From Escherichia phage L27, in sequence record LC473039.1: a stretch of 64,000 bases of DNA. One strand, given 5' to 3'. The number at the start of each line of letters is the position of its first letter. The stretch's first letter is position 1. Positions 6,978-18,690 of this stretch are shown piece by piece. The position numbers and the translations under genes were made by a program. The notes beneath the pieces are model-generated. The model worked only from the letters and a program-made list of their open reading frames with translations, had not been told where the DNA came from and did no database searches.

Positions 6978-7026
6978 GCAAAACAATTCGAAGAAAAGGT
7001 TTGAATAATATTGGTGAGGTAACTAG

Positions 7027-8034: not shown

Positions 8035-8355
8035 ATGAGCAAAGTTTATAACACTCGCAAATTACAGATTTTCGTACTGTGCCAGTTTATGGCTAAAGAG
8101 TACAACTTCTACTATTGTGGTACAGGTTTTATTAGCGATGATGATGGCTCATACCTACCATTTAAAGAGGCTGTGAAGCTCTTTAATGAAGAGAAAAGCT
8201 CTAAGAAAGATATTGAAAAGGTTAAGCTAACTTACAGCAAGAAAGATAAGAAGATTATCTGCCTAGATAACTTTGTAAAAGTTACTGGAGAAGCAAAAGA
8301 GTTTATGGATGAGAGTGAGATTTCATTCACAAGCATCTTGAAAGTAGCTGAGTAA
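8035..8355 (+). CDS. hypothetical protein
   Basis: 106 aa ORF followed by terminator hairpin. Confidence 0.5.
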   Translation: MSKVYNTRKLQIFVLCQFMAKEYNFYYCGTGFISDDDGSYLPFKEAVKLFNEEKSSKKDIEKVKLTYSKKDKKIICLDNFVKVTGEAKEFMDESEISFTSILKVAE

Positions 8356-8367
8356 ACAGGTACTATA

Positions 8368-8397
8368 AGGGGACTTTAAAGGTTCCCTTTTTATTTT
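8368..8397 (+). terminator. Rho-independent terminator
   Basis: AAGGGGAC...GTTCCCTT hairpin + TTTTTATTTT. Confidence 0.6.
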
Positions 8398-8480
8398 GGA
8401 GATGTTATGTATCTGCCAAACATAAAACGTTCTGCTGCAATGGCAGTAACAAACGTAACTTTTGATTGAGAGAGAAAACT

Positions 8481-9362
8481 ATGAAAACATCTATCCGTGT
8501 TACAGTTCATTCACCAACTAAAGGGACTCATGAAGAAGAGTTTAACATCATCCAATTTCCTTCTGGTGAGATTGGTGGCCACTTTTCGCCAGAGTTTGTT
8601 GATTTTACTGCTTATGCTGCATCATCCATCAACAACGTGATTATGATTGTAAAGGGTTATGACAAAGACACATTATTTGCTGTGGCACTTGCTAAAGAGG
8701 CAATTGATGATTTAGTACCTCATAAGTTTGCTATGAAGACTGCTATCTTTTACTATTTGCCAAATGCACGTTACGACCGTCACATGTTTAAAGGTGATGC
8801 AGCAGCTTTGAAAGTGTTTGCACAACAGGTTAATGCAATGGGTTTTGATGCAGTCTGTGCAGTTGACCCTCACAGTTATGTACCAGATAACCTGTTTAAC
8901 TGCTTCCAGAGTATTCCTCAAAAGGAAATTGCAGTCCACTATGCAAATGACCCACTGGTTGATTACTTAGTCGCCCCAGATGCAGGTGCTGCTAAGAAGA
9001 TTGCAGAGACCGCTAAAGAGGTGGATAAACCATACATCACAATGTCTAAAGTACGCAACCTGAAGACTGGTGAAATCACTGGTATGCGAATCCTTGACGA
9101 TGTTGATTTGACAGATAAAACTGTCATGATTCTTGATGATATCTGTGATGGTGGTCGAACCTTCGTAGAGGCAGCTAAACACCTACGTGAAGCAGGTGCA
9201 AAACGTGTGGAACTCTATGCAACTCATGGTATTTTCTCTAAAGGTGTTGAAAACTTACTTGACAATGGTATTGCCCACATTTACACTACAAACTCTTTAG
9301 GCGAAGCTAAAGACCGTGGCTTAACACATTATGGTCAAGTTACTGTAGCAAACCTTGATTGA
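8481..9362 (+). CDS. ribose-phosphate pyrophosphokinase (Prs)-like enzyme; candidate ADP-ribose pyrophosphokinase (Adps) of a NARP1-type NAD+ reconstitution pathway
   Basis: Prs-family motifs: AVDPHSY, VAPDAGAAKK, PRPP-binding loop MILDDICDGGRTF, GAKRVELYATHGIFS; ATG 8481 behind GAGAGAGAAAA. Confidence 0.75.
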   Translation: MKTSIRVTVHSPTKGTHEEEFNIIQFPSGEIGGHFSPEFVDFTAYAASSINNVIMIVKGYDKDTLFAVALAKEAIDDLVPHKFAMKTAIFYYLPNARYDRHMFKGDAAALKVFAQQVNAMGFDAVCAVDPHSYVPDNLFNCFQSIPQKEIAVHYANDPLVDYLVAPDAGAAKKIAETAKEVDKPYITMSKVRNLKTGEITGMRILDDVDLTDKTVMILDDICDGGRTFVEAAKHLREAGAKRVELYATHGIFSKGVENLLDNGIAHIYTTNSLGEAKDRGLTHYGQVTVANLD

Positions 9363-9370
9363 AAGTTTAT

Positions 9371-9393
9371 AGGGGCTTGAAAGCCCCATTTTG
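9371..9393 (+). terminator. hairpin terminator between Prs-like and NAMPT-like genes (probably partial)
   Basis: GGGGCTT-GA-AAGCCCC + ATTTT. Confidence 0.5.
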
Positions 9394-9407
9394 AGAGAGA
9401 TTAAAAG

Positions 9408-11189
9408 ATGACTAAATCACTTTATGCAGTACCAGCAGGTCTTAATGCAGATGCTTACAAGGCATCACATGTATATCAGTATCCAGATGCTACGCAATAT
9501 CTTATGTTGAACCTGACACCACGTAGTGATAAATGGTTTAACAGTCCTTTAGCAATTGACGGTGTAGTGGCTTTTGGTATTCAACGTTTTGTTAAAGATT
9601 ACTTAATAGACCACTGGAATGCCACTTTCTTTGAACGTGATAAAAAAGAAGCAATTGACGAAATCTTAGAAGTCATGAACGGTGTTCTGGGTAAAGATTC
9701 TATCGGTCGAGAGCATTGGGAAGCACTTCACGACTTAGGTTATCTACCAGTTGAAGTATACGCTGTAGAAGAAGGTACAGTTGTCCCGATGCGTGTCCCG
9801 ATGATTGTCTTTCAGAACACTGTTTCAGGTTTCCATTGGGTAGCAGGATATCTGGAAGATGCTTTCTCTGCTGAGATTTGGAAGGCTTGTACCATTGCAA
9901 CTATTGCATTGCACTACAAACGTATCTGTAAGAAGTGGTCTGACCTTACTTGTGACAACGACTTGCATTTGCCTTATCAGTGTCATGACTTTGCTATGCG
10001 TGGTATGTCCGGCTTTACTGATGACGCATTTAACGCTGTAGGTCACTTAACCAGCTTTAAAGGAACTGATAGCTTCCCTGCTGTATACACGGCTAAACGC
10101 ATCTATGGGCAGTCTTACCCAATCTCTGATATTGGTAGCTCTGTACCAGCCACTGAACACTCTGTAATGTGTGCAAACATTGCTTGGGAAGGCGGTAATG
10201 AATTGATTGAAGAAGAAAGACGATTTAAAGGTGAGTTGCAAACCTTCCGTCGTTTCTTAACAGAAACTTACCCAACTGGTATTGCAAGTATTGTTTCAGA
10301 TACTTATAACTTCTGGAGAACTGTGTCAGAAATCTTACCAGCACTCCGTAAAGAAATTATGGAACGTGATGGTAAACTGGTAATTCGCCCTGACTCTGGA
10401 GACCCTGTACATATTGTCACAGGTTATAAAGCAATCCACTTAGAGTGTGCTAAAAAGGCTTATTACGAGCACCTAAGCAAGCTGGAAGCCAGTGACACAA
10501 TGTTGAATGCTGTTCTGAACATGAAGCTTGAAAACATCAACTATGGTATTGCTGGATGGCTACTGTCAGAAGGCTACGAAATGGTTGTTGACAGAGAAGA
10601 CTTTGAAGTTGCTGACACAGTGATGTTGAAAAATGCTTATATGGTTGGTTCTGCAAACGTTGTAACACGTCCTGTAGCTGAGATTGATGGAGCTATTAAG
10701 ACACTGTACAACATCTTTGGGGGAACTATTAACTCTAAAGGGTTTAAGGTACTGGATGAGCACATCGGTCTTATCTATGGTGACTCTATCACGCTGGAAC
10801 GTGCAAACGAAATCCTGAAGCGTTTGTATGAAATGGGTTTTGCAAGCTCTAACGTAGTGTTTGGTGTAGGCTCTTACACTTACCAGTACATGACTCGTGA
10901 CACCTTTGCATTTGCTGTCAAAGCAACTCTTGCAAGCATTGGTGGTAAAGAGATTATGCTTGCAAAAGACCCTAAAACAGATAGTGGTGTTAAGAAATCT
11001 GCCTTTGGTGGTGTAGCACCTATGTGGGATGGTGATAAGCTGAAAGCTGTAGATGGCTATGGATTCCAGAGTTTTGCAGACGTACTTGACCACCCAGCTT
11101 GTGCTTTACGTTTAGTCTTTAGCGACTCTGAGCAGTTCGGTTACACAACTCTTGGTGATATTCGAAACAATATTGACAAGCAGCTTTAA
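9408..11189 (+). CDS. nicotinamide phosphoribosyltransferase (NAMPT/NadV)-like enzyme; candidate nicotinamide ADP-ribose transferase (Namat)
   Basis: 593 aa; NAMPT-like core (FGVGSYTYQYMTRDTFAFAVK, GLIYGDSIT); immediately downstream of Prs-like gene. Confidence 0.75.
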   Translation: MTKSLYAVPAGLNADAYKASHVYQYPDATQYLMLNLTPRSDKWFNSPLAIDGVVAFGIQRFVKDYLIDHWNATFFERDKKEAIDEILEVMNGVLGKDSIGREHWEALHDLGYLPVEVYAVEEGTVVPMRVPMIVFQNTVSGFHWVAGYLEDAFSAEIWKACTIATIALHYKRICKKWSDLTCDNDLHLPYQCHDFAMRGMSGFTDDAFNAVGHLTSFKGTDSFPAVYTAKRIYGQSYPISDIGSSVPATEHSVMCANIAWEGGNELIEEERRFKGELQTFRRFLTETYPTGIASIVSDTYNFWRTVSEILPALRKEIMERDGKLVIRPDSGDPVHIVTGYKAIHLECAKKAYYEHLSKLEASDTMLNAVLNMKLENINYGIAGWLLSEGYEMVVDREDFEVADTVMLKNAYMVGSANVVTRPVAEIDGAIKTLYNIFGGTINSKGFKVLDEHIGLIYGDSITLERANEILKRLYEMGFASSNVVFGVGSYTYQYMTRDTFAFAVKATLASIGGKEIMLAKDPKTDSGVKKSAFGGVAPMWDGDKLKAVDGYGFQSFADVLDHPACALRLVFSDSEQFGYTTLGDIRNNIDKQL

Positions 11190-11203
11190 AAGTATATGAT
11201 AAG

Positions 11204-11227
11204 AGGCTCCTACGGGAGCCTTTTTAA
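11204..11227 (+). terminator. Rho-independent terminator (GGCTCC-TACG-GGAGCC + T run)
   Basis: Perfect hairpin + TTTTT. Confidence 0.7.
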
Positions 11228-18489: not shown

Positions 18490-18690
18490 ATGGCTGACTT
18501 CTGCAAAGACTGTTCTATCGAAATGTTCGGACGTGATACAGGTGACTTAAAAGGTCTCGTCACTGAAGATGACTTTAAAGCTGGTTATGCGATTCCAGTA
18601 ATCTGTGAAGGCTGTGGGTGTATCTGGGTAGACCACGAAGGGCAACGTGTAAAGCCTTCAGAAGATAAAGAATCTTGGGAGAGATGTTAA
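18490..18690 (+). CDS. hypothetical Cys-rich small protein
   Basis: CKDCS ... CEGCGC pairs suggest zinc ribbon. Confidence 0.45.
   Translation: MADFCKDCSIEMFGRDTGDLKGLVTEDDFKAGYAIPVICEGCGCIWVDHEGQRVKPSEDKESWERC

Follow-up and report, generated by a model that had tools for sequence, protein, structure and literature searches.

Two adjacent genes of Escherichia phage L27 (LC473039.1), adps and namat, very probably form the Felixounavirus version of nicotinamide adenine dinucleotide (NAD+) reconstitution pathway 1 (NARP1), a reading to which we assign a probability of about 0.93. The window analyzed is the whole 64,000-nucleotide (nt) stretch taken from this record; all coordinates follow its numbering and the genes discussed lie on the + strand. 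The module is an orthologue of the NARP1 prototype and is therefore already known; nothing new on NARP1 itself is established here. In the proposed mechanism, SIR2-HerA, type I Thoeris, DSR1/2 or SEFIR would cleave NAD+ into ADP-ribose (ADPR) and nicotinamide. Adps (8481-9362) would then pyrophosphorylate ADPR with ATP to ADP-ribose pyrophosphate (ADPR-PP), from which Namat (9408-11189) would make NAD+ directly by adding nicotinamide, and phage replication could continue on the regenerated NAD+.

The operon in which NARP1 was discovered consists of genes 79-80 of the BASEL phage Bas63 and carries the same Pfam annotations as the pair described here (Osterman et al., bioRxiv 10.1101/2024.02.11.579819). 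Bas63 without these genes formed ~20-fold fewer plaques on SIR2-HerA, ADPR-PP was seen only when wild-type Bas63 was combined with the defence system, and the counter-defence was independent of the host nicotinamide mononucleotide (NMN) salvage genes pncC and nadR (bioRxiv 10.1101/2024.02.11.579819). The Adps of SPbetaL1 has ADPR and not ribose-5-phosphate as its substrate, while SPbetaL1 Namat prefers ADPR-PP to phosphoribosyl pyrophosphate (PRPP) and makes NAD+ directly (bioRxiv 10.1101/2024.02.11.579819). Further NARP1 operons act against type I Thoeris, DSR1, DSR2 and SEFIR and do not overcome type II Thoeris, which is a non-NAD+ system; the position of Adps beside Namat is the defining association, found for 97% of the Adps clade (bioRxiv 10.1101/2024.02.11.579819). 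An initial annotation of the window had stated that phage pairs of this type rebuild NAD+ as Adps and Namat, and this statement matches the published account.

The same annotation had named the genes as a Prs homologue with two characteristic motifs and a 593-amino acid (aa) NAMPT homologue, and both family assignments lie far beyond chance. The product of adps is 293 aa long when counted from an ATG that agrees with the annotated Bas63 start (a TTG upstream at 8466 would make it 298 aa). It carries both quoted motifs, MILDDICDGGRTF at aa 216-228 (the ribose-phosphate binding loop) and GAKRVELYATHGIFS at aa 239-253, and is matched by Pfam Pribosyltran/Pribosyl_synth and by PHROG 619 'ribose-phosphate pyrophosphokinase' (E=1e-96). 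The namat open reading frame (ORF) indeed comprises 593 codons for amino acids, and its product contains the Pfam families NAPRTase (E=6e-35) and NAMPT_N and matches PHROG 448 'nicotinamide phosphoribosyl transferase' (E=6e-201). The Adps-clade protein is encoded 45 nt from the Namat homologue, which is the arrangement that characterizes NARP1.

These family names are equally the basis of the conventional explanation, according to which the pair would be a true PRPP synthetase and a NadV-type nicotinamide phosphoribosyltransferase, with NMN converted to NAD+ by host enzymes and the salvage boosting phage metabolism. Pfam, PHROG and nearly all GenBank annotations carry these names, and the Felix O1 record calls its gene nadV, 'part of the pyridine nucleotide salvage pathway'. 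We nevertheless consider this explanation very improbable: Bas63 counters the defence system of the host with no need for host PncC or NadR, the intermediate detected is ADPR-PP, and the homologous Adps yields no product from ribose-5-phosphate.

Megablast comparison of the region retrieved 259 phage records, nearly all of them Felix O1-like phages of Escherichia, Salmonella, Shigella and Citrobacter with 80-96% identity; the best matches across 25 kb were 91-94% identical and none was identical. By these matches, the window is that of a Felixounavirus. It is collinear over ~30 kb with Escherichia phage JohannRWettstein (Bas63, MZ501086.1), with which it shares the adps-namat slot between nrdG and rIIA. 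The window and the Bas63 operon (bas63_0079/0080) agree in genus, gene order, the lengths of both proteins (293 and 593 aa), the 45-nt spacer with its hairpin and the downstream terminator. Namat is identical to bas63_0080 at 582 of 593 positions (98%) and Adps to bas63_0079 at 234 of 293 (80%). They differ in the N-terminal ~180 aa of Adps, which belong to a different allele class in the window, and in the absence from the window of genes 0077 and 0078 before adps and of gene 0081 after the operon. The NARP1 reading is supported because the two genes are positional orthologues of the Bas63 operon and pass all literature-derived sequence tests.

Residue K190 of the window Adps (nt 9048-9050, in MSKVRN) aligns with the catalytic K162 of SPbetaL1 Adps and is invariant in all four Adps proteins compared (window, Bas63, SPbetaL1 and K354); the K162A mutant of the SPbetaL1 enzyme is inactive (bioRxiv 10.1101/2024.02.11.579819). 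A true PRPP synthetase is further argued against by the NCBIfam models, since the window Adps scores below every canonical Prs equivalog cut-off (105 versus 296, 69 versus 438, 66 versus 518 and 54 versus 536 bits, among others) and passes only the broad subfamily model TIGR01251, and this barely (121.7 versus 113 bits). The verified SPbetaL1 Adps gives the same pattern of failed equivalog cut-offs. No Adps structure was found in the PDB, where the best match is the archaeal Prs 4TWB (E=7e-21).

The dimorphism of Adps concerns its N-terminal half (aa 1-180, nt 8481-9020), while the C-terminal third is nearly invariant across Ounavirinae. Compared with Bas63, the adps DNA is 59-66% identical in the first 300 nt and >93% identical past ~nt 600, a pattern that looks like recombinational allele replacement; both allele classes retain the ATP-site motifs (FPSGE, RYDR and DPHS blocks). 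In a census based on the first 90 aa, ~145 of 251 Ounavirinae records were at least 90% identical to the window Adps, making its type the majority class; 9 records fell at 80-90% and ~97 at 60-80%, the latter comprising the Bas63/FelixO1, Mooglevirus and Suspvirus types. The N-terminal 90 aa are 93% identical to those of the Adps of phage wV8. Since the supplementary tables of the NARP1 study list the Adps of wV8 and mio, which represent the N-terminal allele of the window (bioRxiv 10.1101/2024.02.11.579819), the system is known down to this allele.

For Namat, the structure of the SPbetaL1 protein (PDB 9W5W/9W5X) provides a direct point of comparison, as it contains a selectivity clamp peculiar to Namat, which a helix and a loop form together (Lan et al., PMC12774641). 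The signature GSX-phi-X-phi-X-phi-TRD is reported to be absent from Nampt, and the loop provides the adenine-stacking residue, which is either Arg or a Lys/Tyr together with the next residue, Bas63 being the Lys-type example (PMC12774641). The window Namat has the clamp-helix motif GSYTYQYMTRD at aa 488-498 (nt 10869-10901), with Y490 and Y494 as aromatic residues, and a clamp loop K42-W43 identical to that of Bas63 Namat. A PDB search with this protein placed 9W5W/9W5X at the top (E~6e-129). The SPbetaL1 Namat sequence was rebuilt from the PDB alignment and the numbering of 20 residues named in the paper was verified before these were mapped to the window. Each of the 20 ligand-contact residues of 9W5W/9W5X is either kept or exchanged for a similar one: D15, Y17, F195, R198, D221, A248, R327, D329, G458, D459, G488, S489, Y494, T496, R497 and D498 are conserved, and the conservative changes from SPbetaL1 to the window are S190 to A196, A362 to S460 and F392 to Y490. 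Within this set, the Nampt-like catalytic core of SPbetaL1 (F189, R192, D215, R306 and D308, among others) corresponds to F195, R198, D221, R327 and D329; G458, D459 and the changes S190 to A196 and A362 to S460 also fall in this core. The Namat-specific adenine clamp is thus intact in the window protein, whereas Nampt is recognized by the absence of the clamp and by a clamp-helix equivalent that lacks the aromatic motif. Compared to SPbetaL1 Namat and Nampt, the window protein contains ~100 additional residues in three insertions (aa 258-278, 340-397 and 409-427), and such insertions of Felixounavirus Namats are not discussed in the structure paper (PMC12774641). The NARP1 tables mark Felixounavirus Namats as 'Adps-associated' (bioRxiv 10.1101/2024.02.11.579819).

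The conventional explanation gains an apparent argument from the NCBIfam equivalog NF006629 'nicotinate phosphoribosyltransferase' (cut-off 405 bits), which the window Namat passes with 469 bits. The crystallographically verified SPbetaL1 Namat passes the same model with 594 bits, and the match therefore does not discriminate between Namat and Nampt, which also explains the persistent mis-annotation. Family hidden Markov models (HMMs) were rejected as a Namat-versus-Nampt test for this reason, and no Adps- or Namat-specific model turned up in the NCBIfam, Pfam and PHROG scans.

Bas63 orthology, the clamp, K190 and the failed Prs cut-offs together favour an Adps and Namat pair of the NARP1 type over PRPP synthesis with NadV salvage, as the initial annotation had proposed. 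It had also suggested a comparison of HMMs and structures between characterized Adps/Namat and canonical Prs/NadV, and the outcome points the same way: the Prs cut-offs are failed and the Namat contacts are kept, with NF006629 as the non-discriminating element. Four points count on the other side. The in vitro reactions are known for the SPbetaL1 proteins alone, which took the place of a Bas63 protein that 'did not purify well' (bioRxiv 10.1101/2024.02.11.579819). Namat keeps some PRPP-to-NMN activity in vitro, an activity that agrees with the conventional explanation and leaves room for a minor salvage role (bioRxiv 10.1101/2024.02.11.579819; PMC12774641). The N-terminal ~180 aa of the window Adps differ from those of the genetically tested Bas63 Adps, and how that half handles the substrate is therefore something we infer. 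Lastly, as NF006629 does not separate Namat from Nampt, family HMMs alone weigh neither way. The window proteins are syntenic orthologues in which every published diagnostic residue is conserved, and the Adps and Namat reactions are those predicted for them on this basis.

Set against known systems, the pair resembles NARP1 of the Bacillus phage SPbetaL1 in its two-gene order, its catalytic residues, the adenine-clamp helix motif and the Adps catalytic lysine. It differs by an identity of 47% (Namat) and 34% (Adps), a K-W clamp loop instead of Arg40, the ~100 extra Namat residues and a longer Adps N-terminus. With canonical Prs and Nampt/NadV, and with the phage NARP2 system (Nampt and Nmnat, e.g., KVP40), it has the superfamilies and the chemistry at the anomeric carbon in common. 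The window proteins are distinguished from canonical Prs and Nampt/NadV by the missed Prs equivalog cut-offs and the adenine clamp, and from NARP2 by the partner of Namat, which is Adps and not Nmnat. A literature search found no paper joining Felixounavirus and NARP1 by name.

The practical value of the assignment lies mainly in annotation. Nearly all deposited Felixounavirus genomes and the curated NCBI model label the pair as 'ribose-phosphate pyrophosphokinase' and 'nicotinamide/nicotinate phosphoribosyltransferase', and automatic annotation will go on mislabelling Namat as long as it passes NF006629. Felix O1-like phages serve in the typing and biocontrol of Salmonella and E. coli, and recognizing NARP1 helps to predict their host range on strains with SIR2, TIR, SEFIR or DSR systems.

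The sole part of the analysis that is not already published concerns a Macro-domain gene and the question of whether an unlinked homologue of a Macro phosphatase extends NARP1 to RES-type defences. From NAD+, the RES-domain defence aRES produces nicotinamide together with ADPR-1''-phosphate, a product that is of no use to NARP1 (Osterman et al., bioRxiv 10.64898/2026.01.28.702374). The Poa1p-like Macro phosphatase Adpp, which 15% of NARP1 phages encode in the operon itself or at most two genes away from it, restores ADPR and is required to overcome aRES; the extended pathway is called NARP1-AP (bioRxiv 10.64898/2026.01.28.702374). A Macro-domain gene near the operon had been pointed out in the initial annotation as possibly linked in function. 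The gene does exist, its 261-aa product matches Pfam Macro (E=1e-7, aa 25-141), and Adpp provides a precedent for such a link. Its proximity did not hold: downstream of namat, 7.5 kb with 13 + strand genes and three terminator hairpins precede the Macro gene, which closes another transcription unit and lies outside both the NARP1 operon and the two-gene margin around it. As the gene is neither in nor next to the operon, the link to NARP1 is not demonstrated here; it is plausible but unproven.

The Macro protein is 97% identical to bas63_0095 'putative phosphatase' and consists of a Macro domain of the Poa1p/Adpp type (aa ~3-160), followed by a C-terminal domain of ~100 aa and unknown fold. The Macro domain aligns end to end with the verified Adpp of Vibrio phage Gary (27% identity, E=3e-13) and with the in-operon homologue of Vibrio phage K354. 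It likewise aligns over its full length with a near-identical Thalassavirus relative of Gary Adpp in phage Chester (29%, E=2e-14) and the Macro protein of JG004, which is catalogued as NARP1-associated (30%, E=9e-22). An AlphaFold2 model (pLDDT 90.7) has as its best structural match Poa1p, an ADPR-1''-P phosphatase (6LFR, E=3e-10). The macrodomains of DarG and TARG1 fit the model essentially equally well and give the highest target-normalised TM-scores (0.85-0.87). The fold search was rejected as a means to separate Poa1p from TARG1/DarG because its scores are essentially tied, and catalytic residues were mapped instead. K84 and D125 of TARG1 and K80 of DarG are taken here to be the catalytic residues of glycohydrolase macrodomains. 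In the window Macro protein, the TARG1 positions are occupied by Q90 and G131, with Gln and Ala at these positions in Adpp proteins, and an HxCNC motif is common to the window protein and Adpp proteins. The residue mapping therefore speaks for the Poa1p/Adpp type and less for a glycohydrolase of the TARG1/DarG type.

Two explanations of the Macro protein can be weighed on these data. The first adds to the NARP1 reading of adps-namat: the unlinked Macro protein would act in trans as an Adpp-like ADPR-1''-phosphate phosphatase that feeds ADPR to Adps, giving a dispersed NARP1-AP against aRES. The function of Adpp in NARP1 operons, the homology to the proteins of Gary, Chester and JG004, the match to Poa1p, the Adpp-like residues and the conservation of the gene in Bas63 are all consistent with it. 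It is held back by the distance and the separate transcription unit, by the equal fit of the DarG/TARG1 folds and by a C-terminal domain that Adpp lacks. Moreover, Table S1 of the NARP1-AP preprint, a screen within 2 genes, contains no Felixounavirus (bioRxiv 10.64898/2026.01.28.702374). The Macro family is also far wider than NARP1: in coarse per-genus counts, 2,861 phage records contain it, ~1,000 of them from Escherichia (T4 tk.4 being an example), versus only 188 Escherichia records with any Namat/Nampt homologue. We regard a role in trans as a tentative possibility. Compared with NARP1-AP of Vibrio phage Gary and its relatives (Adps-Adpp-Namat), the window likewise encodes Adps, Namat and an Adpp-homologous Macro protein, but this Macro protein is known from its sequence, is encoded outside the operon, is 27-30% identical to Adpp and has the additional domain.

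In the second explanation, the Macro protein would serve a purpose outside NARP1, such as the removal of ADP-ribose from DNA, RNA or protein or the binding of ADPR-derived signals; possible targets are the modifications made by DarT/CmdT-like toxins or by the phage's own ADP-ribosyltransferases. DarG is the best NCBIfam match (48.6 bits, far below the cut-off of 250), TARG1/OARD1 are the best PDB sequence matches (E~1e-5), the TM-scores are highest for DarG/TARG1, and Macro homologues are common in phages without NARP1. What speaks against it is the replacement of the Lys and Asp presumed to be catalytic in TARG1/DarG (K84 by Q90, D125 by G131) and a motif pattern that is that of Poa1p/Adpp and not of TARG1. 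An unrelated role appears quite possible, at somewhat below even odds. The more specific proposal that Felixounaviruses, including Bas63, run NARP1-AP in trans, with the Macro protein dephosphorylating the aRES product ADPR-1''-phosphate and adps-namat rebuilding NAD+, seems rather unlikely. The text of the NARP1-AP preprint does not mention an aRES challenge of Bas63 or any BASEL phage (bioRxiv 10.64898/2026.01.28.702374), and a literature search for phage macrodomains, Poa1p and anti-defence gave a general review only. If the in-trans role were true, the figure of 15% for Adpp within two genes would underestimate the number of NARP1 phages able to resist aRES.

Directly upstream of the Macro gene, a 66-aa cysteine-rich ORF (18490-18690, +; CKDC...CEGCGC, zinc-ribbon-like) ends exactly at the Macro gene start (18690/18691), which suggests translational coupling.

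Features of the adps-namat locus and the Macro gene in the Escherichia phage L27 window
Feature	Position	Strand	Basis or remark
Promoter-like hexamers TTGAAA-17-TACTAT	8338-8366	+	Abut 5' side of upstream terminator hairpin
Upstream intrinsic-terminator hairpin, 10-bp stem then TTTTATTTT	8367..8389	+	-11.4 kcal/mol, z -2.0
Remnant ORF, 20 codons, MYLPNIKRSAAMAVTNVTFD followed by stop	8407..8469	+	Comparison with Bas63
adps, putative ADP-ribose pyrophosphokinase (ADPR-PP synthetase)	8481..9362	+	ORF, Pfam, PHROG, Bas63 orthology
GC-rich hairpin GGGGCU-UGAA-AGCCCC then AUUUU, adps-namat spacer	9372..9387	+	-11.5 kcal/mol, z -2.8
namat, putative nicotinamide ADP-ribose transferase	9408..11189	+	ORF, Pfam, PHROG, Bas63 orthology
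Namat insertions	10179-10241, 10425-10598, 10632-10688	+	Alignment with crystallised SPbetaL1 Namat
Promoter-like hexamers TTGACA-16-TATGAT, 11/12 matches	11173-11200	+	Abut downstream terminator hairpin
Downstream intrinsic-terminator hairpin, 10-bp stem then TTTTTAATTT	11201..11224	+	-16.6 kcal/mol, z -4.3
Macro-domain gene, candidate accessory, orthologue of bas63_0095	18691..19476	+	Pfam Macro, homology, model

The enclosure of the two genes between terminators, already described in the initial annotation, is confirmed: the ORFs have the coordinates given there, and both flanking hairpins are real and followed by T-runs. The upstream hairpin closes the transcription unit before adps, and the downstream hairpin, which is exactly conserved in Bas63, ends the operon. 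Between positions 7000 and 13000, the total of terminator-like sites is not raised (4 versus 3.8 in shuffled sequences), and the two flanking hairpins are the strongest of these sites. Transcripts from the two promoter-like sites would begin inside the hairpins and could escape termination; the downstream site is annotated as a promoter in phage AYO145A.

A third hairpin, missed in the initial annotation, is located in the spacer between adps and namat. Bas63 has conserved it, and the depositors of AYO145A annotated it as a rho-independent terminator. It may be a partial terminator or an element of RNA stability, and could attenuate namat expression compared with that of adps. An HNH homing-endonuclease gene occupies the same spacer in Felix O1 and many of its relatives; this gene is not present in the window.

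A two-gene cassette (171 and 92 aa) between the upstream terminator and adps is present in Bas63, Felix O1 and AYO145A, where it sits inside the same terminator-bounded unit as NARP1; the window is without it. In the remnant ORF found instead, 12 codons from the start of bas63_0077 run into the final ~10 codons of bas63_0078, and the junction is a ~13-nt repeat common to both (CTGCAATGGCAGT). A deletion between short direct repeats would be expected to leave such a trace, and both a loss of the cassette here and a gain elsewhere would fit. Scanned against Pfam and PHROG, the small genes on the flanks and the Bas63-only genes 0077, 0078 and 0081 matched only families of unknown function, e.g., DUF7390; neither a RyR or Macro domain nor another accessory domain known from NARP1 was among the matches.

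Two further observations concern the wider comparison with Bas63. In Bas63, at L011:22943-23407, the annotated nrdD is made up of two joined parts that enclose a homing-endonuclease gene; the window (~4842, nrdD region) aligns straight through without this ~420-nt insert, and its nrdD appears uninterrupted. Between ~20188 and 25317, the window contains a family of ~90-105-nt repeated intergenic elements among small genes (for instance at 20188-20284, 20656-20761, 20998-21103, 22319-22422 and 23100-23210), each of which has several counterparts, 85-97% identical, in the matching part of Bas63.

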